Positions 4,319 through 48,320 of a stretch of DNA of 64,000 nt are shown piece by piece. The notes beneath the pieces were generated by a model. It searched no databases. It was given only the letters and a program-made list of their open reading frames with translations, and had not been told where the DNA came from. The number at the start of each line of letters is the position of its first letter. Position 1 is the stretch's first letter. The position numbers and the translations under genes were made by a program. Source of the stretch: Planctomycetia bacterium (GTDB taxonomy: Bacteria; Planctomycetota; MHYJ01; WSZJ01); the NCBI GenBank assembly GCA_020849035.1, contig JADLHC010000110.1, positions 5,269-69,268 of the forward strand. Direction: 5' to 3'.

Positions 4319-4337
4319 GCCGGGATTATGACCGCGC

Positions 4338-14913: not shown

Positions 14914-14927
14914 GGCTTCCAGAGAAT

Positions 14928-15482: not shown

Positions 15483-15565
15483 GTGAACCGGGAGCGGGGC
15501 TTGCGCGATCAACCCCCCTCACGAATGATCCACCGCCTTCCACTCCTCCCCCGTATCACTCCCTG

Positions 15566-27227: not shown

Positions 27228-27335
27228 GGACGCCTCGCTTGCTGCGCCACCGGGATGATGGTACCTGCCGGGAAATCGACGCCTGCGCCGCGAGTTTCAT
27301 GAGAAAAATCCGGGGGGCGCAGTCGCGGCACGGAC

Positions 27336-28295: not shown

Positions 28296-28356
28296 CAGGC
28301 GCCGGGGCGCGGCGAGGTATGAAGCAGGTTGCGGACGCCGAGTGGAGCCGCGGCTT

Positions 28357-28417
28357 GGGAGCTGGGTTCGAACCACCCTGCGCCCTGGTGAGGGGGACAC
28401 CGGATTTGAAGTGCGGA
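28357..28417 (-). repeat. Degenerate tRNA-Sec-like 3' fragment (att-like repeat, left island boundary)
   Basis: The minus strand reads CACTTCAAATCCGGTG, then a hairpin-prone variable region, then GGTGGTTCGAACCCAGCTCCC. It shares the 15-mer CACCGGATTTGAAGT (28398-28412) with 46510-46524. No 5' half and no intact T-stem. Confidence 0.45.
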
Positions 28418-28557
28418 GGGGTGGGAATCGTGGTGGTGTAAGTGGCGGAGGATGCGCAACTTGCGGCGGGGAATCTGGAAAATTGCGCGCGATCTGGCGA
28501 TGAGCAACGATGTGAGCACCGCCTGCGAACCCCGCTCCGACCCCAGACGATCAAGAC

Positions 28558-30453
28558 GTGGATCTCGATATGCGGAGAGCGGACGTGAAGGCGGAGATGA
28601 TCGAATGGAAGAAGCCCTGCCGCTGCGGCAGCGGCCGCCAGGCGAGGAAGTGCTGCGGACACTCCCCGCGATCCGGGGTCAAGACCGTCGGCAAGTCCGG
28701 CGCCTTTCGCTACGGGGCAATCACCCCGACTTTTCGCGAGATCTTCCCCGGCTTCGCCAACTCCCCCGCGCATCTCCGTGCTGCATTTGGCCTGTTCAAC
28801 CCGGACGAGATGATCGAGGGCATCGCCAGGCTGAATCACCGCACGAGCTACGCCGCTGGAGCCGATGACCCGGCGGAGATGGCCGCTGTGGAAGCCGTGG
28901 CCGGGCCGGAGCTGACGCGGCGACTGCGAGAGTTCGCACAAGACAAGGCCTGCCGGCTGTTCTCCCCGCTTACGTACCTGGCCCGCATCATCGAGACGCT
29001 TCGCTGCCCCGCGAATTCGAACGGGCAGTCTCCGCTCTCGTCGGGGCCTGTTTTCGTCGGCACGCTCCTCCGCATGGCAGATCATGCTGAAGCGGACGCG
29101 GCGGCCGCGATGGAGAGCAGCGGAGCCAATTTTCGGCGATTCGGATTCGGCTCGCTGCTTCGGAACATCCGGTTCAACACGCGGGAGAAGTTCGAGTACC
29201 TGATGGGCCGGACGTACTCCATGTACGTCGATCATCTGCCGCGCGTCCTCAAGAGTGGCAAGGGCTCCATCGACCTCGCGGCGGAGCTCGCAAATCGGAC
29301 GGGGGCAGACTTGAAGACGTTTCTGGTCTGCATGTTCAGCACCTGGGGCTACTACTTCGGGGGGGAGGAGAAGCACGGCCAGTTTCTGAAGCAGCTCGAT
29401 CAGTCGCCTCCAGCCTTCTACCTCACGCAGGTCGTGAACAACTTCAAGCCGGCTTACCAGAGCGCAGCAGCAAGTGCGCTTCGGCTCTTGACGGGAGACA
29501 TGTCGAGTCTGGCAGATGAGGTCTCCAGACTCGAAGGACTCGGCGACCCGATCAACCGGTACGCAGGTCTCGACATTCTCTGGAGACGTCCGCTCTACAA
29601 GACTCCACAGGGATGCTGGTTTCCGGTGGATCGGCACCTGCTGGAGGAGCGGATGACCAGCGGCATCAAGTGGGCCATTCATGACGCCGTCGTCGCGGAT
29701 GCGAAGGCGGTGAAAGGGACGCCTGAGGAGAAGCGCCTCCTGAACCTCAGAGGTGACGTGATGGCGCTGTTCGGGCACGTCCTGGATTCGTACGTGAGCG
29801 ACATCGTCGATCGCATCTGGGGGGAACGCCACAGCGTGACGGTGCTTCGCGATGCCGAAGTTGGCGGAGGCGCGGACTTCAGCATCTTGGACTCCGCCAC
29901 CCCCCATGACGCGGTGGTCATCGAGACAACCGCCTCCGGCATTCGAGTCGCGACCGCCATGTCGGGCGACATGGACCTGATCGACGAGGAAGTCGACAGG
30001 GAGATCTTCTTCAAGACCGTGGGCAAGGAGAAGCGGGGGAAGATGGCGCAGCTGGACTGGACAGTCAGCCAGTTGCGTGCGGGCACGCTCAAGGGGCAAG
30101 GAGCACAGCGGCCGAAGCGGATTTACCCGATTCTCGTTCTGGAGAACGGACTGCCCACGTCGATGGGCCTGTTGGATCACTTCCGCGACCGAGTGAGAGC
30201 CAAGGGCCTGCTTCAGCAGGATGTCGATCGCTTGACGATCATCTCCGTCAGCGAGCTGGAACGGCTGGAACCCATTCTTGGTCGCCCTGGCACTTCTCTG
30301 GCGTCGGTCCTGGAGGAGAAGTCGCGAAGCTCAGCATCATCAGACTCGATGCGGAACTACCTTCATTTCTCAGGTCGAGATGAGTTCAACGAAGTCCTTC
30401 AGCGGCAGTGGGACAGGTTGGAAGACGATGCAGAAGAGGTCCTCATCAAATAG
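28558..30453 (+). CDS. Large hypothetical protein with N-terminal SEC-C metal-binding motif
   Basis: CRCGSGRQARKCCG matches the SecA C-terminal CxCGSGxKxKxCC motif. The remaining ~590 aa were not recognised. A possible nuclease-like segment is ADFSILDS...VVIETTAS. Confidence 0.6.
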   Translation: MDLDMRRADVKAEMIEWKKPCRCGSGRQARKCCGHSPRSGVKTVGKSGAFRYGAITPTFREIFPGFANSPAHLRAAFGLFNPDEMIEGIARLNHRTSYAAGADDPAEMAAVEAVAGPELTRRLREFAQDKACRLFSPLTYLARIIETLRCPANSNGQSPLSSGPVFVGTLLRMADHAEADAAAAMESSGANFRRFGFGSLLRNIRFNTREKFEYLMGRTYSMYVDHLPRVLKSGKGSIDLAAELANRTGADLKTFLVCMFSTWGYYFGGEEKHGQFLKQLDQSPPAFYLTQVVNNFKPAYQSAAASALRLLTGDMSSLADEVSRLEGLGDPINRYAGLDILWRRPLYKTPQGCWFPVDRHLLEERMTSGIKWAIHDAVVADAKAVKGTPEEKRLLNLRGDVMALFGHVLDSYVSDIVDRIWGERHSVTVLRDAEVGGGADFSILDSATPHDAVVIETTASGIRVATAMSGDMDLIDEEVDREIFFKTVGKEKRGKMAQLDWTVSQLRAGTLKGQGAQRPKRIYPILVLENGLPTSMGLLDHFRDRVRAKGLLQQDVDRLTIISVSELERLEPILGRPGTSLASVLEEKSRSSASSDSMRNYLHFSGRDEFNEVLQRQWDRLEDDAEEVLIK

Positions 30454-30546
30454 GAGTTTCGAAAGATGCGGTCGCCGCCTCGGCTAAGGCGTTTTGGAGG
30501 TCGGAGGTGGGGGACGAGGTCGGCAGTAGTGGCGCTCGCGTGGCCA

Positions 30547-32904
30547 TCAGCTGCGACCGATTCTGACGCGGGACCGGATCGCCTCGACTCGGGCGCGCAC
30601 GCTGGTGTAAACATTCACGTCCGGGTCCTCGGCTTCCAGGCCGACTACAACGGCGAATCCTTGCAACTCGGCCTGATGCGCCGGACGAACAGCCTTCGCC
30701 ACAAGGGCCAATCGGTACGACTCACCGTACACGCCCCGCTTCCACTCGAAGAGGTTCTTGTAGACGCTTCCCGAGGACTGCATTCGGTAGGGGTACTTCC
30801 CCCGCCAGAAGATCGGTCGTTTTCCCTTCTTCCCGACGCTCTCCTCTGGCTCGCCGTCAGACTGCTCCGCGGCCGCCTCAATCTCTGATACCGCCTTGAG
30901 CACATCCGCTTCGCTCCGGTCGCCGCGAGCCAGGTGCGTGCCGATTCGAATGCCCGCGATGTTCAGCTCGTCAAAGACGTTGGTTGGAGGGTCGTACGCG
31001 ACAGTGACCCAAATGCGCTTCGAGCCCTTCGACGCTGCAAACTCGCGAGGGACGGGAACCTCGAATAGCTGGACCTCGTTTGGGCGAATCTTGCCTTCGT
31101 GGTAGAGCGTGGCCAGGCGATTCGAGCAGTAGAGCGCACGTTCTTCTTTCGGCACCCCGAATCCGCAGAGTCGCAGTTGCCGCTGTATCTTCCAGGCCAC
31201 GACCTCCTCGGGATGACGCGCCGCATTGACGATCAGCGCGCGCATGAGGTTGGGACTGGCTTCCGGGTGCTTTGCAAGAATTGCCGCGGCGAGATTCGCG
31301 ATCTTCGGGGCTGCCAGGCTAGTGCCTACTTCGTGGACCAGGAGTCTTCCTCCTGCGGCGAAGTCGGGGCGCGTTGTGAGGACGCGGGCCGTTTCGATGT
31401 TGTGCCTGTACGCCTTCAAACCCGTATCGAAGACCCAGTTCCCGGCGACCTCGACTACCTCCGGCTTGATCAATCCCCTTAATGAGCCCGCGCGTGCGAA
31501 CGGGGATGGCGCTCCTGGGTCTGCGACGCGCTCTTCCTCTGCCTTTCGTACGCCAGCGGCTTCACGGGGCGCAATCCCCCCCACGGTCAGGGCGTTCAGA
31601 GACTCGCCAGGTGCGCAAACACGATTGTCGTCATGCTCCATCCAGGTCGGGTACTGCGCGTGGCGCGGCGGGGCGCCAGATTGAAAGTCCCTGTTGCCCG
31701 ATGACACGATCGGAAGTACGCCGTGAGACCGCACGAGTTCGTCGAGTTCAGCACCGAACTTCGTGAGCTTGCTCGCTGGCTCCGCAAGTCCCAAGGAGAG
31801 GTTCAAGATGCGACAGTCCGGAGCGACGTGGTCGACGACATCGCGCAGGAACGGCTGCCGATTCGTGTCGAGCTCGCATTGATCGCCAAGCATGCGCGCA
31901 TTGATCAGTCGAGCCGATGACGTGAACTTGCGAGCATCCACGTGCCGTCGGACCTCCCCGAAGGCGGCGATGCCTGCGACGAGCGTGCCGTGTCCGGCAG
32001 GAACCGCGCTTACGTTCGGAATCGGCGGGCCGAGAGAGGCTGGGAACGATTTGGACTTGGCTGGCATCAGCGACGGCCCGATGAGTGGATGTCCCTCACG
32101 AATTCCCGAGTCCACGATGCAGACAAGGGGCGCAGTCGGTGGCGGAGGTACGACGGGTTGGACATCGTCCAGCCCGAATTCAAGGGAGTGTCTCGCAAGG
32201 CTTCGCGTGTACGGAGGGAGCTCGACTTCCGCAACATCATCCCGGTACTCCAGGAAACTCTGGAGTGCCTGCCCCTTCATCTTCACGCGCGCCGAGACGA
32301 ACGTCGTCCGGAACGCCGTGTCCAGGATCTGTCCGCCTGCCTCCTTGGCAAACGCGCTCAGGGAGTTCAGGCCCTGCGGGCTTACGTGGCCGTCAGGGGC
32401 TGGTAAGAACAGCACGTCAACGATGACCTCCTCCTCCGGACCCTTGGGCCTCGCCATGAGGCGCGGTCCCCTTCGGTCCGTCGCAGACCAGGGCGCGAGG
32501 TGTTCGATCTTGGCGAGCGGGGCTATGGCCTTCTGGCCCGATTCGTAGGACCGCACCCTCGCCGTTAGCTTCGTAAGAGCCCGATCCTGGCCGAAGGCGG
32601 CGATGACCGAGTCGTGCCTGCGCAGGACCGGAGTTAGGCCAACGCTCATCAGCTCGGCGTCGCTGACGTACTGTTTCGGGGGAAGTTCGACCCGAACGAC
32701 GGGAACGTCAGTCGCGAGCTTCGGGAACCTCTTCTCGGCCTCGCCGAAGTGCCCCAAGGCTCGTAGGGCCCCGGATCGGAGGTTCAAGCCGTGCTTCCCG
32801 ACCTCACGCTGAGGCAGAGGCGGAGGTACGAACCTGCCCTTCTTGCGCGCCACGCTTGAAGGCGGACCGAGTCTGAGCAGCGGTCGAAGATCTTCTTCTG
32901 CCAT
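30547..32904 (-). CDS. S8 family (subtilisin-like) serine peptidase, IetS-like
   Basis: Catalytic motifs in subtilase order: VCIVDSGI (Asp), AGHGTLVAG (His), VGTSLAAPKIA (Ser). Located 10 nt downstream of the AAA+ gene on the same strand. Confidence 0.85.
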   Translation of the reverse strand: MAEEDLRPLLRLGPPSSVARKKGRFVPPPLPQREVGKHGLNLRSGALRALGHFGEAEKRFPKLATDVPVVRVELPPKQYVSDAELMSVGLTPVLRRHDSVIAAFGQDRALTKLTARVRSYESGQKAIAPLAKIEHLAPWSATDRRGPRLMARPKGPEEEVIVDVLFLPAPDGHVSPQGLNSLSAFAKEAGGQILDTAFRTTFVSARVKMKGQALQSFLEYRDDVAEVELPPYTRSLARHSLEFGLDDVQPVVPPPPTAPLVCIVDSGIREGHPLIGPSLMPAKSKSFPASLGPPIPNVSAVPAGHGTLVAGIAAFGEVRRHVDARKFTSSARLINARMLGDQCELDTNRQPFLRDVVDHVAPDCRILNLSLGLAEPASKLTKFGAELDELVRSHGVLPIVSSGNRDFQSGAPPRHAQYPTWMEHDDNRVCAPGESLNALTVGGIAPREAAGVRKAEEERVADPGAPSPFARAGSLRGLIKPEVVEVAGNWVFDTGLKAYRHNIETARVLTTRPDFAAGGRLLVHEVGTSLAAPKIANLAAAILAKHPEASPNLMRALIVNAARHPEEVVAWKIQRQLRLCGFGVPKEERALYCSNRLATLYHEGKIRPNEVQLFEVPVPREFAASKGSKRIWVTVAYDPPTNVFDELNIAGIRIGTHLARGDRSEADVLKAVSEIEAAAEQSDGEPEESVGKKGKRPIFWRGKYPYRMQSSGSVYKNLFEWKRGVYGESYRLALVAKAVRPAHQAELQGFAVVVGLEAEDPDVNVYTSVRARVEAIRSRVRIGRS

Positions 32905-32914
32905 TCGGCCGATC

Positions 32915-33757
32915 TTACTCGGCGCGTTGCGTCTTCGTGACGATCTTCAGGCGGGCGGCTTGCTGCTCGATCTCGAGTGCAAGGTCAGTTTCGGCGAGTT
33001 CGCGCGAACCACGCATCGCGAGCGCTTTCATCGCTTCGTGGCAGACTCTCTCCGCGTCCGCGAACGAGAAGCCGCGCATCTTTGCCGCAGCCTTCCTTAG
33101 GTCGAGGCCGGACGTGCTTACCGGGCGAAGGCGAAGCTGCAGCAGCGCAGTCAGGTCCGCCGCCTTTGCCATGGGGAACTCCAGCACATCATCGAAGCGT
33201 CGCCAGAGCGCCTCGTCCAACATCCCTTGGTGATTGGAGGCGGCGACCACGAACTTGTCCCTCGGGTGGGCATCCAGAATTTGAAGGAAGCTGCTGATGA
33301 CGCGCTTTAACTCTCCTACCTCGTGCGGATCGTCGCGACGCTTGCCCAGCGCGTCGAATTCGTCGAAGAACAGGATCGCGTTCTGCTGCGCCGCGAACGT
33401 GAAGACCCGACGAAGGTTGGTCGCGGTCTCCCCGAGATACGAGGACACGATCCCATCGAACCTGGCGTAGAGGAGCTTCATGCCCAACGAACCGGCTAGC
33501 GCCTCGGCGCACACAGTCTTCCCGCACCCGGGCGGTCCGACGAAGATCAGTCGCGAGCGCGGGTGCAGGCCAAGGCCGGCGATCGCGTCTCGGCCGCGGA
33601 ATTCCTGTTCGATCCTCCGGAGGGAGCCACGAATCGCGGGCGTGAAGACAAGTTCGTCGAGGGAGCGGACGGGGTCGCGCATCTCCACCAACAGCGCGTC
33701 CCGATCCGGGTCGCGGGGAAGCGAACCGAAGTGGATGATCTTGCTTGGTTCACCCAT
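32915..33757 (-). CDS. AAA+ ATPase, IetA-like
   Basis: Walker A FVGPPGCGKT, Walker B ILFFDEFD, classical AAA second region of homology. Operonic with the S8 peptidase. Confidence 0.85.
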   Translation of the reverse strand: MGEPSKIIHFGSLPRDPDRDALLVEMRDPVRSLDELVFTPAIRGSLRRIEQEFRGRDAIAGLGLHPRSRLIFVGPPGCGKTVCAEALAGSLGMKLLYARFDGIVSSYLGETATNLRRVFTFAAQQNAILFFDEFDALGKRRDDPHEVGELKRVISSFLQILDAHPRDKFVVAASNHQGMLDEALWRRFDDVLEFPMAKAADLTALLQLRLRPVSTSGLDLRKAAAKMRGFSFADAERVCHEAMKALAMRGSRELAETDLALEIEQQAARLKIVTKTQRAE

Positions 33758-33825
33758 GGTTTTGTCCCTTTTCGCCTCCGCGTACGTAGTCAGTATATCG
33801 GCGGGGTCCCGGAGCTGACACTAAC

Positions 33826-34761
33826 TTAACTTCCGGCGATGGAAGAGGATGCGCTCTTCCTGGCCGGATCGAGCACCCCCACCGCCTCCCTTAAGTTCTT
33901 CTCCTGCAGGTGCGCGTACCGCATCGCCATCGCCAGCGTGGTGTGCCCGAGGAGCTGCTTGATCGCGAGGATCGGCACCCCGGCCTGCGCGAGCCGCGAC
34001 GCGAACGTGTGCCGCAGGTCGTGCCACCGGAACCGCTCGACGCCTGCGCGTTTCAGCGCCGTCCGCCACGCCTCCCCGTTGAACCAGTTCATCGCCTTGC
34101 CCGAGATTGGCCCCGTGAGCACGCACGGCTGGTGCAGGCGCCGCGGGATCGCGGTCAGCGTCTCGCGCAGGGTCGCGTTCATCGGAACGACGCGGTCGCG
34201 TTTCGACTTCGTGTGGCGGATGGTGAGCGTGCCGCGCTCAAAGCTGACGTCGGCCCAGGCCAGACGGCGGAGTTCGCCCGCGCGGAGGCCACTGTGGATG
34301 GAGATCACGATCGCGGGGCGGAGCCAGGGGGCGGCGTGAGCAAGGAGGTTCGCTTCTTCCTCGGGCGAGAGGAAGCGGACCACCGTGTTCTCGATGCGGG
34401 GCTTCTTGACCAGCTTCACGGGTTTGCGCTCGACGAGGTCGGCCTTGAGGGCCTCGCGGAAGACGCCGGAGAGCGAGCAGACCTCCTGATACACGCTGGC
34501 GGGTCTCGCGCCGGCGCGCAGGCGGCGGTCGGCGTACTTCTGGACGTCGGCGGCCTTGACCTCGCGCAGCGTCATCGAGCCGAACGCCGGACGGACGTGC
34601 GTGCCCCACAGGCCGACGTAGCGCGCGCTCGTGCCGGGAGCGAGGTTGGTACGGACGTGGTCGAGGTACTCGCGCTCCACGAACTGCCGCACGGTCGCGG
34701 GCGCCTGCGGGTTCACGAGCGCGTCCACCGACGGCAGCTTCAGGAGCCGTGCCTGCAGCAC
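33826..34761 (-). CDS. Tyrosine recombinase/integrase (N-terminus uncertain, possibly truncated)
   Basis: Catalytic box WHDLRHTFASRL...LLGHTTLAMAMRYAHL and an SAM-like N-domain. The first usable start is GTG at 34761. The 519-aa ORF-track extension is antisense to a plus-strand gene remnant. Confidence 0.8.
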   Translation of the reverse strand: MLQARLLKLPSVDALVNPQAPATVRQFVEREYLDHVRTNLAPGTSARYVGLWGTHVRPAFGSMTLREVKAADVQKYADRRLRAGARPASVYQEVCSLSGVFREALKADLVERKPVKLVKKPRIENTVVRFLSPEEEANLLAHAAPWLRPAIVISIHSGLRAGELRRLAWADVSFERGTLTIRHTKSKRDRVVPMNATLRETLTAIPRRLHQPCVLTGPISGKAMNWFNGEAWRTALKRAGVERFRWHDLRHTFASRLAQAGVPILAIKQLLGHTTLAMAMRYAHLQEKNLREAVGVLDPARKSASSSIAGS

Positions 34762-34812
34762 CTGCTCATTGCGCTCGGCCAGCAGCCACCGCGCGACCTC
34801 CTCCTGCGTTAG

Positions 34813-35625
34813 CGCCGCCGCCGTCCGGGCCGCGACCTGACCGACGGAAAGACGATCCGGCAGGCCCTGAACTACTCCAACAACGCGGGGGTGACCTGGT
34901 GCGTCCTCTCGAACGGTGACCACTACCACTTCTACAAGGCGTCCGACCCGGCGAAGGCGGAGGAAAAGATCTTCTGGAAGCTCTCCCTCACGGAAGACTC
35001 GCCGGAGGAAGTCGCCCAGTTCCTGCGGCTCATCTCCCGCGAGTGCGTCGGCGACAATCCGCTGGAGCAGTTCTGGCGGCAGCGGGCGCTCGACCGGGAC
35101 GTGAAGGCGGCCCTCTAGGCGCTGCTGGCGCGGCCGGACGCGGCGATCGTCAAGCTGGTGAGCCAGGACGTCGCCGGGCGAACCCCGAAGGAGATTGCGG
35201 AGTCCATCCGCCGCCTCGTGCCCCACATGACGATCCCGACGCCGGACCTGATGCAGAAGCCGCGCCGGGAGAGGCGTGCGGAGCCGGGCGCGCGGCGTGT
35301 CGTGAAGGGCGAACTCGCGGCAATCCTCGCCGCGGGCATCCTCCAGGCCCCCGTGACCCTCCGCAGTCGGTACAAGGACGGCCACGTCGAAGCGGTCCTT
35401 CAGGCGGACGGCCAGATCCTCTTCGACGGAACGCTCTACGGCTCCTGCTCGGCGGCGGGGGCCATGGGGAAGAAGAAGGTCGACGGCACCGCGAAAGCCA
35501 CGAACGGCTGGGTGTTCTGGACGTACCGGGACGCCAGCGGCCGCGAAGTTCCTCTGGCCGAAGCCCGTGAGGCTCTCGTCGGGAAGCGTGGAGAACGACG
35601 GGAAGGGGCCGACGCTGGCACCTGA
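34813..35625 (+). pseudogene. Remnant of a restriction-type gene (HsdR_N-like PD-(D/E)xK N-domain plus DUF4357/RAMA-like C-domain), 5'-truncated with an in-frame TAG
   Basis: VTWCVLSNGDHYHFYK is HsdR_N-like. LYGSCSAAGAMGKKKVDGTAKATNGWVFW is RAMA/DUF4357-like. ORFs 34891..35118 and 35158..35625 share a frame separated by TAG at 35116-35118. There is no N-terminus upstream of about 34813. Confidence 0.55.
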
Positions 35626-35744
35626 AGCCCGGGTAATCCTCGGACGGCTTGACGGTCCACTGGACTCACGTAGAGTCCCGCTCGCCAGCCGAGGCTACCC
35701 TGATCCCTCCCCTTTGGCTGCACCAAGCCCTCGGCTGGCAGCTT

Positions 35745-36638
35745 TCACATCCCGGCCACCGCCGCCGCCACCTGCTCGTCCGCAACCCGCGCATACACCA
35801 GCGTGCTGGCGATGCTCCGGTGGTCGAGCGCCCGCTGGACGAGCAGGATGTCCTTCGTCTTGCGATAGAGAGCTGTGGCGAAGGTGTGGCGAAGGCCGTG
35901 CGCAGTGACCCGGCGAGCGATCCCGGCCTCCCGAAGACGCCGCCCGATGATGGCCTGGACCTGCCGGCGACAGAGGCGACGGCGCTGCGTGGAGACGAGC
36001 AGGGCCGGAGAAGTCGAGCCCAGCAGCGCCCGCGCCGCGAGCCACGCCGTCAGCCGCTGTCGAACAGCCTCGGAGAGCCCCTTCCGTACTTCGCCGCCAC
36101 CCTTCAGCCGCCGGAGGAGGACAACGCGCTCTGCGAAGTGCACGTCAGCAGCGTCGAGCGCCACAAGGCTGGACAGGCGTATCCCGGTGCCGAGGAGCAG
36201 CGCCAGGATCGCGGCATCGCGTGTCCCACGCCACCCCGAGGTCCGGTCCAGCGCCTGCCGGAGCCTGTCGCGCTCCTCGTCGGTGAGAAGCTCAGGAACG
36301 CGATGGTCGCGGCGGAACTTGAGTACTCGCGCGGGGTTCGTCGAGAGCTCCCCGGCGTCGAGGAGGAACCGGAAGAACGCCCGCAGCGACATCTTGATCT
36401 TGTCCACGCTCGCCTGGCGCTTGCGGCGGCCATCGGCGGTCTCCGTCGCGCACCTCGCCGTTGCGAAGCGGCAGAGGGTGGAGGAGGAAAGGCGTCGAAC
36501 ATCGGTCGGGACGCGCTCCGTTGCCAGCCACGCCCGGAACTCCCCGAGATCTCGCAGGTAGCTGCTGATCGTATGCGGACTGCGCTGGTTCGCGCGGAGC
36601 TGGGTCTCGAAGTCGCGGATCGCTTGGCCGAGCAGCAT
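35745..36638 (-). CDS. Tyrosine recombinase (XerC/D-like integrase)
   Basis: Start MLLGQAIRDF is preceded by GAGGAGG. Motifs GTGIRLSSL, AHGLRHTFATAL, LDHRSIASTLVYARV. Confidence 0.85.
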   Translation of the reverse strand: MLLGQAIRDFETQLRANQRSPHTISSYLRDLGEFRAWLATERVPTDVRRLSSSTLCRFATARCATETADGRRKRQASVDKIKMSLRAFFRFLLDAGELSTNPARVLKFRRDHRVPELLTDEERDRLRQALDRTSGWRGTRDAAILALLLGTGIRLSSLVALDAADVHFAERVVLLRRLKGGGEVRKGLSEAVRQRLTAWLAARALLGSTSPALLVSTQRRRLCRRQVQAIIGRRLREAGIARRVTAHGLRHTFATALYRKTKDILLVQRALDHRSIASTLVYARVADEQVAAAVAGM

Positions 36639-36865
36639 GGTCGCCTCCTCTGATGGCAGGCGGATGTACGCTCGAAAACGGCCAACCGGCAAGGCATCCG
36701 GGTAGTTCTTGCTCGCAGCGCGGGAGGCTGAGAACCTTGGGGATGAACGGGGGTGGCGCAGGGACTCGCAAGGATAATGCTCCCTGCCTGGCCGCCGCGA
36801 GCGGCATGCATGGGAGCTGAGGATCGCGGTATGCATCGAGTCGAACGGTCTGGGGACCTCTGCGC

Positions 36866-39800: not shown

Positions 39801-40558
39801 AGCGGATCTGCTTCGGCCGCGACCTGCCCGATCGAACCGCGTACGCTCGATTCGACGCGCGCACCCGAGGCGGCGAGGACATGAAGGGGGTTCAGAGTCA
39901 ACTTGCCGCAGCTGCCGCGTGCGTGTTGGGCAAAGGCGAGGAGCGGGCGGCATCCAGCCTGTTCAAGCCCGGGGGGACACTGAGTTTCCCGGGCGACTTC
40001 GCCGGCTCGGGCGACTTCGAGGTCGTCTCGTACCTCGTTGTTCTCCCCGAGGAAAGCCACAGTTACCCCCAAGTCGAACGCACAGAGTGCGCCATCGTCA
40101 CGCTGAGATATGAAAAGCCAGGCGATTCGGCCTTCACGTCCGAAGAGAGGCGCCTGTGCGTCCGTGAGGGTCATGCCTCGCTGAAAACTCAGCTAGCGGC
40201 GGCCATAAGGTCCGAGGACCTGGCGACAGAAGTCGTTCACCTCGGCGATGGCGAGGGATCGTTCTGGGCCGAATTTGCCGTCGTTGCCCTCGGGGCCTTG
40301 ACCCTTTCCGGAGGATTCGCCAATGCTCTCCACATCGTGGGTACGGCGCTGGAGAGCTTTGCCCCTCGCTTGACCACGACCGGGAAGTGGCTGCAGGGCT
40401 GCGCCTGGAGATTGACCCCGAAGCCCGGCGGCGAAGCGCCGAAGCCGGGGTGTTTCGGCGTCCGAAAGTGGTTGGACCGCCGGACGACTCGCTGCAAGCT
40501 CTGCGGGTTTCTCGCCGAGTGCGTGCAGATTGTCGAACCGGGCGGAGGGAAAAAGTGA
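36866..40558 (+). CDS. SNF2-family helicase with N-terminal accessory domain and unusual C-terminal extension
   Basis: Motif I ADSVGLGKTFEA, motif II VVIDESHNFRN, motif VI HWNPVRIIQRFGRIDRLGS. About 165 extra C-terminal residues follow the DFEVVSYLVVL region. Confidence 0.85.
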   Translation: MRLVRNSGNDRVIDLLRPIVSEGRNLDVATPCFSLFAFEAFMREAEDLEKCRLVLPPADSDLAALGSTADRTARNRLHTRWLAGRMQEWVRGKAEVRRARGAIPQGTVVVRDKGAQPILALLGSLSLSTDGLGLTPGNPMSLIQASESPEEARQLSQWFDLQWSALAAEASGRDSLLEELRRYSDLREPSLIYALILYHLFRDRDEALDEEEVVKSSTGIRNTVLWKKLYRFQRDGVVGALEKLQRFGGCIIADSVGLGKTFEALAIVKYHELRNDRVLVLCPKRLRDNWTLYKANDRRNILAPDRFNYDVLNHTDLSRDDGMSGDIDLSHVNWGNYDLVVIDESHNFRNKQTPRQSGETRYDRLMRKIIREGVKTRVLMLSATPVNNRLADLRNQIAFATEGNDVALADHGIASIDSTTRLAQKQFNRWLDLGESERTPAQLIEMLGFDYFRLLDLLTIARSRKHVEKYYGTVETGRFPDRLKPINIKSDVDRAGQFPSIRDINQEIRRLKLASYAPLRYVLPHRQEAYDKKYSTQVRGGEGFFRQADREESLIHLLRVNVLKRMESAAPSFALTVGRQLQDVEQTLARIESQATDLEEVDIEDVDLDDPAFESLLVGRKVKVLLKDVDLVRWKQDLLEDRNRLKNLHASAVEINAARDAKLAALREMIESKVRNPINPGNRKILVFTHFADTARYLFDELSPWARQHLGVESALVTGAGSNLSTIADLRKDLASILSAFAPRSKERPAELVSEGEIDLLNATDCISEGQNLQDCDWLINYDIHWNPVRIIQRFGRIDRLGSPNSRIQLVNFWPNIELEEYIKLEQRVSGRMVLLDVSATGEENLIEQQSGNQMNDLEYRRKQLLKLQDAVIDLEDLSSGVSIADLTLTDLRIDLATYLKAHPGVLEDTPLGITAVTTAAEADLQPGVVFCLRAETDRAKLATDASYPLAPHYLVHVGADGAVRLPFTQAKQILDGLKRICFGRDLPDRTAYARFDARTRGGEDMKGVQSQLAAAAACVLGKGEERAASSLFKPGGTLSFPGDFAGSGDFEVVSYLVVLPEESHSYPQVERTECAIVTLRYEKPGDSAFTSEERRLCVREGHASLKTQLAAAIRSEDLATEVVHLGDGEGSFWAEFAVVALGALTLSGGFANALHIVGTALESFAPRLTTTGKWLQGCAWRLTPKPGGEAPKPGCFGVRKWLDRRTTRCKLCGFLAECVQIVEPGGGKK

Positions 40559-40563
40559 TCGCC

Positions 40564-41334
40564 ATGCAAGAAGCCCTCACGGCAAGCGTCCTTCTGCGGG
40601 TTCTTGACCTCCCCTCCGCTTGTCTCGTCAACCAGCGCATCCCCAAGAAGCTCCTCCTCGAGAACGGCGCGCCAACGGCCGCCGACAAACGCCAGATCAA
40701 CGACGGGATCGAAGAGTTGCTCTGGATCGCGGCGCTCAAACCGACGACCGTCGGCGTCGCCGGGTATCGGGACAGCGTCCGCGAATACTTGGAAATCGCC
40801 GTCCTTCGGTTGACGCTTCGGGCTGGGGCGAAGTCGGCGCGACTGATCGAGCTCGTGCACCGTGCCGTGCCCTATCCCGCGCTCATTATTTCGGAGCCGG
40901 GTCCGCAGGCCGGGCTTTCGGCCGCTCACAAGCGCTGGGCACAGAATGAAGCGGACAAGACCGTGCTCGACGGCGACGTGGTCTTCGCGGAGCTGGACTC
41001 GGAGCGCGACGCGAACGTTTGGCCCACCTTTGCCGCCGCGATGGCCCTGGGCCGCCAGCCGCGCGGCGAGCTCTACGCCCTCTATCAAGGCTGGCTGGAT
41101 ACCCTGCTCGCCCTAAAGGCTGCCCGACTGACAGGCGTTCTCGGCCTTGCCGAGACCGCTGACCAGGCCGCCGTACGGCAGGAGGCGCTCCGCGAGTGCG
41201 CGAAACTGGCGGCCGAAATCGTGCGCCTGCGTGCGGCCGCCGCCAAGGAGAGGCAGATGGCCCGGCAGGTGGGTCTGAACCTGGAACTCAAGCGCGCCGA
41301 GGCGGCCCTCGAATCCGCCCGCGCCCGGTTGTGA
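40564..41334 (+). CDS. DUF4391-like protein
   Basis: Pattern QRIPKKLL...IEELLWIAALKPTTVGV...EIAVLRLTL...VHRAVPYPALII...AAHKRW fits my recollection of DUF4391, which sits between the helicase and methylase in such clusters. Alternative GTG start at 40555 overlaps the helicase stop. Confidence 0.6.
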   Translation: MQEALTASVLLRVLDLPSACLVNQRIPKKLLLENGAPTAADKRQINDGIEELLWIAALKPTTVGVAGYRDSVREYLEIAVLRLTLRAGAKSARLIELVHRAVPYPALIISEPGPQAGLSAAHKRWAQNEADKTVLDGDVVFAELDSERDANVWPTFAAAMALGRQPRGELYALYQGWLDTLLALKAARLTGVLGLAETADQAAVRQEALRECAKLAAEIVRLRAAAAKERQMARQVGLNLELKRAEAALESARARL

Positions 41335-41344
41335 AGGAGGAGCG

Positions 41345-43255
41345 ATGAAGAAGCTGACGCCCGCCGACGCCGAGACTAGGTCCACGGACACCGTGGCCGA
41401 GAACATCGCCAAGCTCAAGGCCCTGTTCCCCGAGATCGTCACCGAAGGACCGACGGGAGCGGCGGTGAATGTGGACACGCTCAAGGGCCTCGTGGGGGAC
41501 GGTACGGTCACGGACGCTGAGGAGAAGTACGGCCTCAACTGGCACGGCAAGCGACGCGCGCGGCAGTTGGCGCTCATGCCATCGACCGGCACCCTGCGTC
41601 CCTGCCCGAAGGAAAGCGTGGATTGGGACAAGACGCAGAACCTGATGATCGAGGGGGACAACCTCGAAGTCCTGAAACTTCTTCAGAAGAGCTACGCGGG
41701 CAAGGTGAAGCTCATCTACATCGACCCGCCCTACAACACCGGAGATGACTTTGTCTATTCAGACGATTTCCAGGACAACATTCGGAATTACCTTGAACTG
41801 ACCGGCCAAGTTGCGGGCGGGCAGAAGGTGATCAGCAACACTGAGGCCAGCGGGCGATTTCATACTGACTGGCTGAACATGATGTATCCACGCCTAAAGC
41901 TGGCTCGCAACCTACTGAGGCCTGATGGGCTTATATTCGTAAGCATCGACGACGGAGAAGTTGGGCATCTAAAGCTCGCGATGAGTGACGTGTTCGGCGA
42001 TGACAACTTCGAGGGACACATCCACTGGCGCAGGCGTCACAATCAACCCAACGATCCCACGAAGATGCTGGCGTTGGTTACGGAGCACGTCTTGGTGTAT
42101 GCGAGAGACAAGAGCGCATACAAAGCGGCAGGGGTTGGGAAGCTCGCGCTGACTGGTGAATTCTCGAACCCCGACGGAGATTCGCGGGGTGATTGGGCCT
42201 CCAAACCCTGGAAGGTGGGGGCCGACCAGTCTGGAAGTCGTTACAAGATAACCACGCCAACGGGGAAGGTGTACGACGAAGATTGGATGGGAGAAGAGGC
42301 CACGTTCAAGGCCCTTCTGGCCGACAAGAGAATGATCTTTCCAGACAAAGGAAATGGCGCTCCACGCAAGAAATACTTCAGAAGCGAGCGGGAGCAAGAA
42401 GGACAGTGTGCGACGAACTGGTGGCCGCACGAGATGTTCGGACATAACCAAGGTGCCAATAGCGCCATGGAGGCGCTGCTAGGCGAGAAGAACGTGTTCA
42501 GCAATCCCAAGCCGATTGAGTTGATCGACGGCATTCTTAGCGTTGGCAACGTCAAAAGCAACGATCTCGTCTTGGACTTCTTCGCCGGTTCCGGAACCAC
42601 CGGCCACGCCGTCATGGCTGGAAACGCCGCCGACGGCGGCAAGCGCCGCTACATCCTCGTCCAGCTTCCCGAGCCTCTCGATCCAGAGAGCAAGGACCAG
42701 AAAGTCGCCGCCGACTACTGCGACAAGCTGAAGAAGCCCCGCAACATCGCCGAGCTGACCAAGGAACGCCTGCGCCGCGCGGCCAAGAAGATCAAGGAAG
42801 AGAACCAAGAGTTCACGGGCGACCTCGGGTTCCGCGTCTTTAAGCTCGACTCCACGAACATCCAGGAGTGGGAGCCCAAGCGCGAGGAGCTAGAAGCGTC
42901 GCTCCTGACAGCGGTCGAGCACCTCAAGACCGGCCGATCGGAAGCTGACATCGTGTACGAATTGCTGCTCAAGCTCGGCCTTGATCTTTGTGTCCCCATC
43001 GAGAAGCGCGCCATCGCGGGCAAGGATGTGCACGCGATCGGCCGCGGCGTCTTGATCGTCTGCCTCGCGGAGAAGATCACCCGCGACGATTTCGAGCCGC
43101 TGGGCCAGGGGATCGTCAAGTGGCACAAGACGCTCGCCCCGGCGGGCGACACAACCTGCGTCTTCCGCGACAGCGCCTTTGCCGACGACGTGGCCAAGAC
43201 GAACCTCGCGGCGATCCTCAGCCAAAACGGAATTGCCAACGTGCGGAGCCTGTAG
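41345..43255 (+). CDS. Site-specific DNA methyltransferase (N6A/N4C, type III Mod-like, beta-class motif order)
   Basis: Motif IV IYIDPPYNTG precedes motif I VLDFFAGSGTTGHAV. Confidence 0.9.
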   Translation: MKKLTPADAETRSTDTVAENIAKLKALFPEIVTEGPTGAAVNVDTLKGLVGDGTVTDAEEKYGLNWHGKRRARQLALMPSTGTLRPCPKESVDWDKTQNLMIEGDNLEVLKLLQKSYAGKVKLIYIDPPYNTGDDFVYSDDFQDNIRNYLELTGQVAGGQKVISNTEASGRFHTDWLNMMYPRLKLARNLLRPDGLIFVSIDDGEVGHLKLAMSDVFGDDNFEGHIHWRRRHNQPNDPTKMLALVTEHVLVYARDKSAYKAAGVGKLALTGEFSNPDGDSRGDWASKPWKVGADQSGSRYKITTPTGKVYDEDWMGEEATFKALLADKRMIFPDKGNGAPRKKYFRSEREQEGQCATNWWPHEMFGHNQGANSAMEALLGEKNVFSNPKPIELIDGILSVGNVKSNDLVLDFFAGSGTTGHAVMAGNAADGGKRRYILVQLPEPLDPESKDQKVAADYCDKLKKPRNIAELTKERLRRAAKKIKEENQEFTGDLGFRVFKLDSTNIQEWEPKREELEASLLTAVEHLKTGRSEADIVYELLLKLGLDLCVPIEKRAIAGKDVHAIGRGVLIVCLAEKITRDDFEPLGQGIVKWHKTLAPAGDTTCVFRDSAFADDVAKTNLAAILSQNGIANVRSL

Positions 43256-43258
43256 CCG

Positions 43259-46200
43259 ATGAAACTGCACTTCGAGCCCAACCTCGACTACCAGCTTCAG
43301 GCCATCGAGGCCGTCTGCGACCTCTTCCGGGGGCAGGAGACATGCCGGACGGAGTTCACCGTGTCGAGGCGACCCGTGGAGCCGAAGACCGTCCAGGGTG
43401 AACTCGGACTCGCGGAACCCAAGCACCTCCAGCTAGAACTGGGCTTGAGCGAATCGGCGCTGGGCATCGGCAACCGCCTCACGCTTCTCGACGATGAGCT
43501 GCTCAAGAACCTGAAGGACATCCAGCTCCGAAACGGCCTGACCCCCTCGGCTTCCCTCGCAGCCGGCGACTTCACCGTGGAGATGGAGACCGGCACAGGC
43601 AAGACCTACGTCTACCTGCGCACTATCTTCGAGCTGAACAAACAGTACGGCTTCACCAAGTTCGTCATCGTAGTGCCCTCCGTGGCTATCAAGGAGGGGG
43701 TCTACAAGTCGCTCCAGATCACCGAGGAGCACTTCAAGGGGCTCTACGCAGGTGTGCCCTTCGACTACTTCCTCTACGACTCGGGCAAGCTCGGCCAGGT
43801 GCGCAACTTTGCCACGAGCCCTCAGATCCAGATCATGGTGGTGACGGTCGGGGCCATCAACAAGAAGGACGTGAACAACCTCTACAAGGACAGCGAGAAG
43901 ACCGGTGGCGAGAAGCCCATCGACCTCATCAAGGCGACACGGCCCATCGTCATCGTGGACGAGCCCCAGAGCGTCGACGGAGGGCTGGAGGGACGCGGCA
44001 AAGAAGCGCTCGACGCCATGAACCCACTCTGCACCTTGCGTTACTCGGCGACACACGTGCACAAGCACCACATGATCTACCGCCTCGATGCTGTGGACGC
44101 CTACGACAAGCGGCTGGTCAAGCAGATCGAGGTTGCCTCGGCGACCATCGAGAACGCGCACAACAAGCCCTACGTGAAGCTAATCACAACTCAGAATAAG
44201 CGCGGGATCATCTCCGCGAAGGTTGAGTTGGACGCGCAGACCGTCAGCGGAGTGTCCCGGCAGGAGATCACGGTCCACGACGGGGACAACCTGGAGCAGA
44301 CGACGGGGCGAGCGGTCTACAAAGACTGCCGAGTCGGCGAAATCCGTGTGGCCAAGGGCAGCGGGTCCATGGAGATCCGCTTCCCGGGCGGCGAACGCTT
44401 CCTGAAGCCGGGAGAAGCCTGGGGAGATGTCGATGCCGCCGCGGTGCAGCGGGAGATGATCCGCAGGACCATCCGCGAGCACCTCGACAAGGAGAAACGC
44501 CTGCGCCCGCAGGGGATCAAGGTGCTATCGCTCTTCTTCATCGATGAAGTCGCGAAGTACCGGCAGTACGACGCGGACGGACGGGCGGTCCAAGGCGACT
44601 ACGCGCGCATCTTCGAGGAGGAGTACCGGCGGCTCGCGAACCATCCCGACTACCGCACCCTGTTCAAGGAGGCAGACCTGACGCGTCCCGCCTCCGACGT
44701 CCACGACGGCTACTTCTCGATCGACAGGAAGGGCGGGTGGACGGACACGGCGGAGGGGAACCAGTCCGGTCGGGACAACGCGGAACGCGCCTATAATCTC
44801 ATCATGAAGGACAAGGAGAGGCTGCTCTCCTTCGAGACCCCGCTGAAGTTCATCTTCTCCCACTCGGCCCTGCGCGAAGGCTGGGACAACCCGAACGTCT
44901 TCCAGATCTGCACGCTGCGTGACATCCGGACCGAGCGCGAGCGCCGGCAGACGATCGGACGCGGGTTGCGGCTCGGCGTGGACCAGGACGGGCAGCGTCG
45001 GCGGGGATTCGATGTGAATACGCTGACCGTAGTCGCCACGGAGAGCTACGAGGACTTCGCCAGAAAACTGCAGAAGGAGATCGAGGAGGAAACCGGCATC
45101 CGGTTCGGGGTCGTCGAGGCACACCAGTTCGCGGTCATCCTCACGGTCGATCCTGAGGGAAAGCCGACTCCGCTGGGATTCGAGAAGTCGAAGGAGGTCT
45201 GGCAGCACCTAAAGAACAAGGGCTACATCGACACCCATGGAAAGGTGCAGGACTCGCTCAGGAAAGCACTGAAGGATGGCTCTCTCGATCTGCCTGAGGA
45301 GTTCGCGGATCTCCACCCGGAAGTCGCCCACATCCTCGGGAAACTCGCCGGTCGGCTGGAGATCAAGACCGCCGACGATCGCCGGCAGGTCCGTCCCCGG
45401 CAGGCCGTGCTCCACGGCCCGGAATTCAAGGCCTTGTGGGATCGCATCAAGCACAAGACGACCTATCGCGTGAATTTCGACAACGAGAAGCTCGTCGAGA
45501 GCTGCACGAAAGCGCTGCGTGAAGCACCGGCCATCCCCAAGACACGCCTCCAGTGGAGAAAGGCCGACATCGCCATCGGGAAGGCGGGCATCGAGGCCAC
45601 GGAGCGGGACGGCGCCGCCACGGTCGTTCTGGAGGAAGGCGACATCGAGCTGCCGGACGTTCTCACGGAAATGCAGGATCGAACCCAGCTGACTCGCCGG
45701 ACCATTTTCAGGATCTTGACCGGCAGCAACCGGCTAGCCGACTTCACGCTGAACCCGCAGAAGTTCATCGACACGGCGGCCGAAGCGATCAACCGATGCA
45801 AGCGACTCGCCATCGTGGACGGGATCAAGTACCAGCGCCTGGGCGACGAGGAGTATTACGCCCAGGAGCTGTTCGAGAGAGAGGAACTGAGGGGATATCT
45901 GAGGAACCTCCTCGAATCCAAAAAGTCGATCTACGAGCAGGTCGTCTACGACTCGGACACCGAGGCCGCCTTCGCCGACCAGCTGGAAAAGAACTCAGCG
46001 ATCAGGGTCTACGCGAAACTCCCAGGATGGTTCTCCGTGCCGACGCCCCTCGGAGGCTACAACCCGGACTGGGCCGTGCTCGTCGAGCAGGACGGCCAGG
46101 AACGGCTGTACTTCGTGGTTGAGACCAAAGGCGCGGCTCTCTTCGCGGACAGCCTGCGCCCCACGGAGAAGGCAAAGGTGGACTGCGGTCGGGAGCACTT

Positions 46201-46324
46201 CAAGGCGGTCGGAGGAGGCGTGGGATTCGCGGTCACCGACAGTTTCAGCGGATTCATGGACGAGGTGGCCCGACGACAGGCGGTCCGAGGACCTGAGGGG
46301 AAGGACCTTGAGCACCGACGTTGA
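43259..46324 (+). CDS. Type III restriction Res-like helicase-nuclease
   Basis: N-terminus MKLHFEPNLDYQLQAIEAV. Helicase motif I METGTGKTYVY and motif II VIVDEPQS. C-terminal PD-(D/E)xK-like YNPDWAVLVEQDGQERLYFVVETKG. Confidence 0.85.
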   Translation: MKLHFEPNLDYQLQAIEAVCDLFRGQETCRTEFTVSRRPVEPKTVQGELGLAEPKHLQLELGLSESALGIGNRLTLLDDELLKNLKDIQLRNGLTPSASLAAGDFTVEMETGTGKTYVYLRTIFELNKQYGFTKFVIVVPSVAIKEGVYKSLQITEEHFKGLYAGVPFDYFLYDSGKLGQVRNFATSPQIQIMVVTVGAINKKDVNNLYKDSEKTGGEKPIDLIKATRPIVIVDEPQSVDGGLEGRGKEALDAMNPLCTLRYSATHVHKHHMIYRLDAVDAYDKRLVKQIEVASATIENAHNKPYVKLITTQNKRGIISAKVELDAQTVSGVSRQEITVHDGDNLEQTTGRAVYKDCRVGEIRVAKGSGSMEIRFPGGERFLKPGEAWGDVDAAAVQREMIRRTIREHLDKEKRLRPQGIKVLSLFFIDEVAKYRQYDADGRAVQGDYARIFEEEYRRLANHPDYRTLFKEADLTRPASDVHDGYFSIDRKGGWTDTAEGNQSGRDNAERAYNLIMKDKERLLSFETPLKFIFSHSALREGWDNPNVFQICTLRDIRTERERRQTIGRGLRLGVDQDGQRRRGFDVNTLTVVATESYEDFARKLQKEIEEETGIRFGVVEAHQFAVILTVDPEGKPTPLGFEKSKEVWQHLKNKGYIDTHGKVQDSLRKALKDGSLDLPEEFADLHPEVAHILGKLAGRLEIKTADDRRQVRPRQAVLHGPEFKALWDRIKHKTTYRVNFDNEKLVESCTKALREAPAIPKTRLQWRKADIAIGKAGIEATERDGAATVVLEEGDIELPDVLTEMQDRTQLTRRTIFRILTGSNRLADFTLNPQKFIDTAAEAINRCKRLAIVDGIKYQRLGDEEYYAQELFEREELRGYLRNLLESKKSIYEQVVYDSDTEAAFADQLEKNSAIRVYAKLPGWFSVPTPLGGYNPDWAVLVEQDGQERLYFVVETKGAALFADSLRPTEKAKVDCGREHFKAVGGGVGFAVTDSFSGFMDEVARRQAVRGPEGKDLEHRR

Positions 46325-46331
46325 GCACTTC

Positions 46332-46381
46332 TTTCCGTCGTCCTGCGTCCCGTTCCGTCGCGCTCCGTCCCTCTCCGTCGC
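46332..46381 (+). repeat. Five 10-bp-phased direct repeats with core TCCGTC
   Basis: Cores at 46334, 46344 (variant TGCGTC), 46354, 46364 and 46374. The array starts 8 nt after the Res stop codon. Confidence 0.7.
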
Positions 46382-46411
46382 AATCCGGACGCACCGAGCC
46401 GCAGACGGGGA

Positions 46412-46449
46412 GGCGCGTAAGTCGCTGCCCGCCCCGCGACTTACGCGCC
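46412..46449. repeat. Perfect 14-bp inverted repeat (hairpin) between the Res gene and the tRNA-like element
   Basis: GGCGCGTAAGTCGC (46412-46425), 10-nt loop, GCGACTTACGCGCC (46436-46449). No U-tract on either strand. Confidence 0.65.
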
Positions 46450-46463
46450 GTAACCCCTTGCAA

Positions 46464-46543
46464 CGGGAGCGCATCGGAATCGAACCGACCAATCCCCTTG
46501 TGGAGGATTCACCGGATTTGAAGTCCGCTTGCTCCGGACTCCC
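46464..46543 (-). tRNA. tRNA-Sec-like element (UCA anticodon loop), apparently lacking a D-arm; probable degenerate selC or att remnant
   Basis: The minus strand reads GGGAGTCC..GCGGA-CTTCAAA-TCCGG, variable hairpin AATCCTCCACAAGGGGATT, T-arm GTCGG-TTCGATT-CCGAT, then GCGCTCCC-G. Only about 20 nt precede the anticodon loop, against about 31 in a normal tRNA. Confidence 0.4.
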
Positions 46544-46566
46544 GTTCGAATCATGTTGTTTCCTGC

Positions 46567-47460: not shown

Positions 47461-47520
47461 GTCCGCGCTCGCCGCCAATCTCCCGTCTCCCATCCCCCAT
47501 CTCCCATCTTCCGTCCTGCC

Positions 47521-48309: not shown

Positions 48310-48320
48310 TCTAGCGGAAA

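Follow-up and report, generated by a model that had tools for sequence, protein, structure and literature searches.

We analysed a 64-kb stretch of a metagenome-assembled genome (MAG) of a Planctomycetia bacterium, called the window below; coordinates refer to it unless a contig label such as L001 is given. The window has about 72% GC and carries many Ser/Thr kinase and TPR genes. These traits first hinted at a myxobacterium, a reading abandoned when homologs and an NCBI protein with 100% identity indicated Planctomycetia. Within it, an accessory region of 18.1 kb lies between two copies of a 15-mer, and each copy is part of a minus-strand segment that resembles selC, the gene for selenocysteine tRNA (tRNA-Sec). 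The region contains two tyrosine recombinases, a pair of genes matching the IetAS defence system and a type III restriction-modification (R-M) module. We consider it probable that 28398-46524 is a tyrosine-integrase island which entered the tRNA-Sec gene via a 15-bp core in the anticodon arm, that this selC has since decayed, and that one module of the island has been replaced. The features at the two ends, with their putative attachment (att) sites, were as follows.

27195-28356, unstranded: hot-spot-adjacent flank including a SWIM-like gene (27336-28295, plus strand), about 78% identical between strains, the rest of the flank being 100% identical
28357-28397, minus strand: putative attR, a displaced and decayed chromosomal 3' tRNA-Sec fragment (variable arm, T arm and acceptor strand), from alignment and BLAST
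28398-28412, unstranded: left copy of the 15-bp core, an exact match to CACCGGATTTGAAGT
28413-28500, minus strand: island arm A, comparable to the P arm of an attP, 85% identical to contigs L009-L011
28501-28519, minus strand: left border motif, GTGCTCA with a second copy (one mismatch) 12 nt away, oriented like the right motif
46309-46328, minus strand: right border motif at the end of homology, a pair of GTGCTCA heptamers at a distance of 13 nt, candidate arm-type sites of the integrase
46329-46464, minus strand: island arm B, comparable to the P' arm of an attP, common to contigs L001, L007 and L008
46465-46543, minus strand: putative attL, a chimeric tRNA-Sec pseudogene, from Rfam RF01852, our own covariance model and identity to intact genes
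46510-46524, unstranded: right copy of the core (anticodon loop plus 3' anticodon stem) and putative junction of island and chromosome, from the exact match and a step in divergence

In composition the island is foreign relative to the host chromosome. The initial annotation had judged it more AT-rich by eye, and the computed values agreed: GC was 63.6% at 28413-46509, against 71.5% and 72.1% in the left and right flanks. The tetranucleotide distance was 0.33-0.49 inside the island (34-36 kb excepted) and 0.17-0.33 outside, and the GC content of third codon positions (GC3) was 0.73-0.85 in island genes versus 0.93-0.97 in core genes.

Copies of the 15-mer CACCGGATTTGAAGT lie at 28398-28412 and at 46510-46524, and a search tolerating two mismatches gave no third site in the window. 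Shuffled sequences gave an expectation of 0.03 matches, and none of 100 shuffles reached two. The similarity of the repeats extends to 48 nt with 73% identity in direct orientation (28368-28415 versus 46480-46527). Thus the pair of minus-strand, tRNA-Sec-like direct repeats sharing this 15-mer, as described earlier from the letters, was recovered by exact search and by pairwise alignment.

The right copy (46465-46543, minus strand) gave the only Rfam match in the window, to tRNA-Sec (RF01852), with 47.6 bits against a gathering cut-off of 47. The Rfam alignment showed a CUUCAAA 7-nt loop with the UCA anticodon and a 5-bp variable stem, together with mismatches in the anticodon and acceptor stems; 3 nt stood in for 16 model positions of the D arm. 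For the whole window, ARAGORN reported no tRNA. When 185,579 species genomes were scanned with a pattern, five Planctomycetota MAG contigs were found, each with an intact 92-nt gene that scored 72-80 Rfam bits and was called tRNA-SeC by ARAGORN; these relatives keep the D arm. Under a covariance model built by us from five intact planctomycete tRNA-Sec genes, the right copy scored 66 bits versus 113-118 for the intact genes, with 17 positions represented by 4 nt. Its 3' part (46465-46527, 63 nt, beginning GGACUUCAAA) was 100% identical to positions 30-92 of the tRNA-Sec of L007 and L008, the contigs CAZPWT010000062.1 and CAVPNQ010000041.1. The 5' part (GGGAGUCCGGAGCAAGC) had no D arm and fell 13 nt short of its intact counterpart, and it diverged between assemblies in the manner of intergenic DNA. 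On these comparisons the 3' half appears to have been supplied by the island, and the chromosomal 5' half appears to drift like a pseudogene. Since the D arm is absent and is the main SelA determinant for tRNA-Sec recognition (PMC11047290), it is very unlikely that the right copy works as selC. The right copy is thus not an intact selC: the gene has no D arm, ARAGORN did not call it, and it barely exceeded the Rfam cut-off. No SelA homolog was detected within the 64 kb, and on L004 selA lies directly upstream of an intact selC (L004 153-1932).

It could be argued that the 79-nt D-armless gene is instead a functional non-canonical RNA maintained by selection. It passed the Rfam cut-off, and the loss of the D arm was also seen in the independent assemblies L001 and L003, so that three assemblies share the architecture. 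Between the window and L001, moreover, the four differences inside the tRNA all fall in the variable arm, as two compensatory pairs. Each variant, however, is an allele that already occurs in intact tRNA-Sec genes (L007 and L008 agree with the window, L004 and L006 with L001). In L003 the 5' half carries indels and stem mismatches. With the stem mismatches in the window copy, its rejection by ARAGORN and the role of the D arm in SelA recognition also against it, we find a functional RNA scarcely credible.

The left copy is, to judge from its sequence, a decayed 3' fragment of tRNA-Sec, because it matched the 3' halves of intact tRNA-Sec genes in BLAST searches (81-82% over 45-49 nt, E about 2-7e-6) and because it shows, in the correct order, the CUUCAAA loop (UCA anticodon), a T-loop reading GGTTCGAA and a GCTCCC acceptor strand. 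Of the tRNA landmarks named earlier, loop, T-loop and acceptor strand were thus seen in the left copy, and loop and variable stem in the right. Minimum-free-energy folding did not discriminate between the two copies. The left segment is not significant under covariance models, and it might resemble a tRNA by chance, in which case the region would be just a low-GC accessory patch. Such a coincidence is remote: the 15-mer is unique to two sites where 0.03 matches are expected, the 48-nt match has the correct order and orientation, a fragment with one core mismatch occupies the orthologous place in L009-L011, and a further contig, L021, has arm and core in the same arrangement. The earlier proposal of integration into a tRNA gene with duplication of its 3' part was supported as regards integration. 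A simple duplication was not supported, as the right 3' half is pristine and the left about 27% diverged.

We then compared the locus between strains. A protein of the right flank has a 99% identical homolog on the metagenome contig L001, which has the identical D-armless tRNA-Sec architecture; upstream, the place of the type III R-M genes is taken by a PLD protein, another SNF2 helicase and unknown genes. Over 46510-48106 the window and L001 have 10 differences (0.6%), and over 46322-46509 they have 20 (about 11%), the last of which lies at 46509 and abuts the 15-mer. To the left of 46309 the sequences are unrelated. A divergence step at the core is expected if all DNA to the left of it arrived with the island, and we infer from the step that the edge at 46510-46524 marks the crossover core.

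On the other side, L009-L011 were 100% identical to the window from 22267 to about 27195, and about 78% identical from there to 28522. In the less similar span lie the SWIM-like gene, whose product has 69% amino-acid identity, as well as arm A and the displaced tRNA fragment, and the left repeat keeps its position. Beyond 28522, L009-L011 carry small open reading frames (ORFs), a TPR protein, AbiEii/AbiEi, a 363-aa integrase, an HTH_17 protein and DUF2924. The flanks of L001 and L009-L011 are therefore 99.4-100% identical to those of the window with unrelated cargo between. As the variable DNA extends beyond the left repeat, island and adjoining flank must have been exchanged jointly by homologous recombination. 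In L003, identity to window 46494-47448 was 77% across the tRNA and a 297-aa gene and 94.5% thereafter. The genes flanking the hot spot are more diverged than the next genes out, which suggests repeated homologous exchange of island and flank. A second displaced tRNA fragment at the 27.2-kb change-point was considered on the basis of weak, mis-ordered resemblances seen by eye, and was rejected in favour of homologous flank exchange. The product of the SWIM-like gene has a 100% identical record (hypothetical protein IT452_07765 of a Planctomycetia MAG); exact-protein look-ups of the window flank proteins gave no match.

Between islands with different cargo, homology was limited to arm A (28413-28522), arm B (46309-46464) and the 3' half of the tRNA. 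The arm A match to L009-L011 covered 122 nt (28401-28522), border motif included, with unrelated cargo adjoining. Arm B was about 89% identical to L001, and 78-80% identical to L007 and L008 over 46309-46527 (tRNA 3' part included), again with unrelated cargo alongside; it contains a 14-bp inverted repeat (GGCGCGTAAGTCGC / GCGACTTACGCGCC) and direct repeats of about 20 nt (GCGACGGA..GGGACG). L009 homology stops at 28522 and L001 homology starts at 46309. Pairs of GTGCTCA, 12-13 nt apart and always in one orientation relative to the tRNA, lie at the exact ends of homology on both sides, and further pairs are found at L001 7668-7686, L007 4797-4815, L008 7813-7831, L009 6227-6245 and L021 14222-14240. 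The stop codon of res falls within the right border motif. By comparison with lambda-type integrases, the attP of this element family would span about 320 bp, with the candidate arm-type sites as its outer limits. We also considered L007 and L008 as cargo-less attL-attR scars, suspected from a TCCGGTGAA 9-mer that follows the border motif, and rejected this. The block shared by L007 and L008 is uninformative because both loci are collinear orthologues at about 88% identity.

A related element was found in L021 (1-14353, Logan SRR13076506). It encodes a PrimPol/D5_N primase-helicase, Mor, DUF2924, a small Xis-like protein of 94 aa, an integrase and an AAA+/S8 IetAS-like pair. Its integrase was 73% identical to that of L009-L011 and 74% identical to the first integrase of the window (Int1) over residues 50-349, and its IetA was 43% identical to IetA of the window. 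The element ends in the border motif, arm A and CCCCGGACTTCAAATCCGGTGAATCCTCCAC, which corresponds to tRNA-Sec positions 28-57. By eye, the arm shares with window arm A the border motif and a GCCACTTAC stretch at the same position; in a BLAST comparison of this arm with the window, the 15-mer core alone matched. L021 looks like a satellite or an integrative replicative element, and the window island seems to be a stripped-down derivative of such an element. For integrases with 51-53% identity, the distance to a tRNA-Met gene is 64 nt to 1 kb, and on this evidence the integrase clade as a whole looks tRNA-targeting. A metagenome scan with the L009 integrase gave relatives of at most 54% identity, mostly on short segments, and tRNA-Sec was absent from the ten longer loci of that scan, L009-L011 included. 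Scanning viral contigs for the tRNA/core pattern gave no match, and thus neither a phage nor an excised attP.

The arms also bear on another explanation, namely that the site downstream of selC is a hot spot in which arms, motifs and the partial tRNA copy are old chromosomal sequence and cargo is swapped at the heptamers, or region-wide by recombination. This would account for cargo homology that ends exactly at the heptamer pairs on both sides and for arm B and its motif following an intact tRNA-Sec in L007 and L008 with no integrase nearby; the left variable boundary at 27,195, which requires homologous recombination, also speaks for it. We nevertheless hold it to be unlikely. Divergence between near-identical strains jumps next to the 15-mer and not at the motif, L021 has arm A and the tRNA-Sec core physically joined to an element with an integrase in other surroundings, relatives of the L021-type integrase adjoin tRNA-Met genes, and the partial tRNA copy is itself the scar expected of a tRNA-targeted integration.

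The genes between the arms were as follows. The gene content listed by the initial annotation was confirmed by Pfam, PADLOC and translation.

28558-30453, plus strand: 631-aa protein with an N-terminal SEC-C-like CxCGSG..CCG motif, from the translation
30547-32904, minus strand: IetS, S8 subtilase (PADLOC IetS E=7.3e-75; Pfam Peptidase_S8)
32915-33757, minus strand: IetA, AAA+ ATPase (PADLOC IetA E=4.6e-78; Pfam AAA)
33826-34809, minus strand (ORF 33826-35385): integrase 1 (Int1), N-terminally truncated (Pfam Phage_integrase E=9.9e-29)
35158-35625, plus strand: RAMA-domain ORF (Pfam RAMA E=1.3e-13)
35745-36836, minus strand: tyrosine recombinase 2 (Int2), XerC/D-like architecture (Pfam Phage_integrase E=3.5e-35 and SAM_1)
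36866-40558, plus strand: SNF2-family helicase of the restriction module (Pfam SNF2-rel_dom and Helicase_C; PADLOC C3a139 E=1.1e-104)
40387-41334, plus strand: DUF4391 protein (Pfam DUF4391 E=1.3e-69, match from residue 73)
41345-43255, plus strand: type III methyltransferase Mod (PADLOC MTase_III E=1.9e-224; Pfam N6_N4_Mtase)
43259-46324, plus strand: type III restriction subunit Res (PADLOC REase_III 1329 bits; Pfam ResIII and RE_endonuc)

Int1 was 94.6% identical to the 363-aa L009 integrase across L009 residues 36-349, and its alignment has the catalytic R, K, HxxR, H and Y positions; NCBI annotates it with 311 residues. Homology to the full-length relatives stops at 34809/34810, and the sequence upstream of 34809 is unrelated. 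About 35 conserved N-terminal residues (M..G.V..D....RWV.RF.DV.GR.RRE.T), present in L009, L021, P0008 and P0011, are absent from the window protein; by analogy they would form the arm-type DNA-binding segment. No homolog of the HTH_17, DUF2924 or PrimPol proteins, and no excisionase (Xis) homolog, was found in the window. Because the N-terminus of Int1 is lost and an excisionase homolog is lacking, the island has probably been immobilised.

The initial annotation had taken the two recombinases and a truncation at about 34.8 kb as signs of nested or tandem insertions. The breakpoint is real. Two tandem islands, one with Int1 and IetAS and the other with Int2 and the type III R-M genes, would agree with it, with the low identity (27%) between Int2 and Int1 and with the GC at 34-36 kb, which is above that of the remaining island. 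Against this, a search from 28.4 to 46.5 kb that tolerated two mismatches gave no third core or tRNA-Sec fragment; the R-M module occurs elsewhere with no Int2-like gene directly upstream (the nearest integrase-family gene on plasmid pOLGA2, which differs in size, lies about 2.8 kb upstream, and no comparison of it with Int2 was made); and a breakpoint inside the Int1 gene fits a replacement within one element. We therefore regard tandem islands as quite unlikely. Since there is no third att copy, the sequence suggests an internal replacement by the RAMA fragment, Int2 and the type III R-M genes. A comparison of Int2 with plasmids gave relatives of at most 34% identity only, in uninformative contexts.

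The integration reading is supported because the composition is foreign, a near-identical strain carries different cargo, divergence steps up at the 15-mer, and related integrase-bearing elements end in an arm and the tRNA-Sec core. Several points weigh against it. The left copy had no Rfam match even at E<=10, and under the model built from the five intact genes it scored 13.6 bits (E=1.3). The strain-variable DNA starts at 27,195, which is 1.2 kb to the left of the left repeat and not at attR, and the change-point on the right could in principle also stem from homologous recombination. L009 and L001 come from the same sample but may belong to different genomes. Comparing relatives for occupancy of the site, as proposed earlier, yielded different cargo at the same site; neither an empty site nor an excised or circular attP junction was found among the contigs available. 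Arm B and its border motif also follow the intact tRNA-Sec in L007 and L008, with no integrase within 4.9 kb, and arm B could be chromosomal in that clade. The assignment of arm-type sites draws on analogy with lambda-type integrases, as the probable immobilisation also draws on analogy, and a loss of selenocysteine use would be deduced from just the D-arm deletion and the lack of selA in 64 kb.

The following sequence of events would explain the locus. A tyrosine-integrase island would have entered selC by a crossover within the 15 bp formed by the anticodon loop and the 3' anticodon stem. The chromosomal 5' half would thereby have gained an island-borne 3' half (attL, 46465-46543), and the old chromosomal 3' half would have been displaced by 18 kb (attR, 28357-28412). 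The chromosomal selC presumably was, or became, a pseudogene: its 5' half, now without a D arm, would drift at the intergenic rate, and the displaced half has reached about 27% divergence. The only pristine tRNA sequence would then be the island's own, and the dead gene would persist as a landing pad. Cargo occupies two slots, with IetAS and the SEC-C protein downstream of the integrase and the SNF2-DUF4391 type III R-M genes, Int2 and the RAMA fragment on the tRNA side. The second block may have replaced the usual replication and excision module of the family (PrimPol, Mor, DUF2924, Xis) and clipped the presumably arm-binding N-terminal residues, about 35 in number, of Int1, so that this copy would be unable to excise. 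Strains would swap whole islands with adjacent flank, probably by homologous recombination.

A more far-reaching proposal is that the dead selC is kept only as a landing pad, of which nothing but the anticodon-arm core still counts, that each arriving island brings a fresh, functional-looking 3' half, and that a PrimPol-bearing, satellite-like family exchanges defence cargo between the heptamer-marked arms. We rate this as unlikely. In a stronger version the heptamer pairs would not be ordinary arm-type sites of the integrase but sites of a separate cassette exchange, possibly served by the XerC-like Int2.

The island inserted in the tRNA-Sec gene can be compared with known systems. In enterobacterial selC islands, P4-like integrases act at the 3' end of an intact selC. 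The islands of Enterobacteriaceae at this gene (LEE, SHI-2 and others; PMC6174562, PMC7545054) resemble ours in that the same target is a recurrent hot spot and the cargo differs by strain. Unlike them, the window has a shared segment that begins in the anticodon arm, another integrase family, anti-phage cargo and a decayed selC. Islands integrated in tRNA or tmRNA genes follow a general model (Islander-type islands; PMC4383910). The window is like these in its tyrosine integrase, split target tRNA and island-borne sequence restoring the 3' part, in the direct orientation of target and displaced fragment at the ends, and in its foreign composition and strain-variable cargo. It differs in that the regenerated target is probably not a working gene, as its 5' half has no D arm, in that the integrase is N-terminally truncated and lies in the middle of the island, and in its planctomycete host.

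An anticodon-loop sublocation is documented for some integrases, for example that of ICEAfe1 (summarised in bioRxiv 10.1101/2020.11.02.365908). With such integrases, too, the identity block begins at the anticodon stem-loop and reaches the tRNA 3' end, and a short anticodon-loop stretch is kept in both att sites; in the window, the putative crossover was placed from a change-point in strain divergence. Defence islands and hot spots of integrative elements share with the window the clustering of several defence systems within a mobile element, and we see no fundamental difference from them, the IetAS, Mod and Res proteins being clear matches to known families. Sister elements carry alternative systems in the same slot: IetAS variants in the window and L021, AbiE in L009, and PLD with SNF2 in L001. 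It is essentially right to call the locus a tRNA-integrated defence island of a familiar kind from an under-studied phylum, with the twist that selC has decayed and only the island-supplied half is intact.

If so, the selC/tRNA island paradigm extends to Planctomycetota, and a defence-carrying element family would have a delimited attL and attR and a predicted attP. The locus would also illustrate that a hot spot for integration can persist after its founding tRNA gene has ceased to function, the island-borne half being perfect and the chromosomal half decaying. For annotation it advises caution: a gene that is probably dead passes as tRNA-Sec in Rfam and is not called by ARAGORN, so that the use of selenocysteine should not be deduced from a selC match without the same care. 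Finally, one frame with alternative cargo (IetAS, AbiE, PLD-SNF2, SNF2-DUF4391 type III R-M) may serve as a natural catalogue of exchangeable defence modules.

As regards the cargo genes, IetA and IetS are adjacent on the same strand, and by family match the pair is an IetAS defence system. The IetA ORF has 280 aa and its match begins at profile position 65 of 374, the L021 homolog being 371 aa long. IetA may be N-terminally shortened, because just 69 nt separate it from the stop codon of the integrase. The RAMA ORF is apparently a remnant of a restriction-associated gene, and the true start of the DUF4391 gene is probably near 40555. Mod and Res lie in one operon with the SNF2 and DUF4391 genes ahead (36866-46324, plus strand). 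The order SNF2-DUF4391-Mod-Res is identical on the betaproteobacterial Paraburkholderia plasmid pOLGA2 (L030 5744-14917); by its gene content and order, SNF2-DUF4391-MTase-Res is a recurrent module. The roles of the SNF2 and DUF4391 genes in it appear unstudied, as a full-text literature search gave just two papers that name DUF4391. The 631-aa SEC-C protein had no match in Pfam, PADLOC or NCBIfam. A SEC-C-motif/PRiA4_ORF3 protein is encoded at L004 4975-6666, some 3 kb downstream from selC. In this phylum, accessory proteins with the SEC-C motif are thus found repeatedly in the neighbourhood of selC, although in a tblastn search the L004 protein had no homology to that of the window.

A few minor observations were made outside the island. 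At 4001-6000 and 14001-16000 of the window, GC was lower (about 65%) and the tetranucleotide distance was raised to 0.31-0.33, with one low-GC3 gene in each patch (4338-4985 at 0.72 and 14983-15543 at 0.73); these patches may be further small acquisitions. Long, near-perfect GC-rich hairpins (CCCTTGCCCTTTCCC... repeats) were seen at L007 6513-6602, L006 3662-3751 and L008 3319-3510. They yield spurious sub-threshold Rfam matches to several microRNA families and may represent a family of repetitive palindromic elements. Four copies of a G-rich 13-nt unit (AAGGCGGGGGCGT-like) stand head-to-tail at 48319-48370, shortly beyond the start of the 47521-48309 gene.

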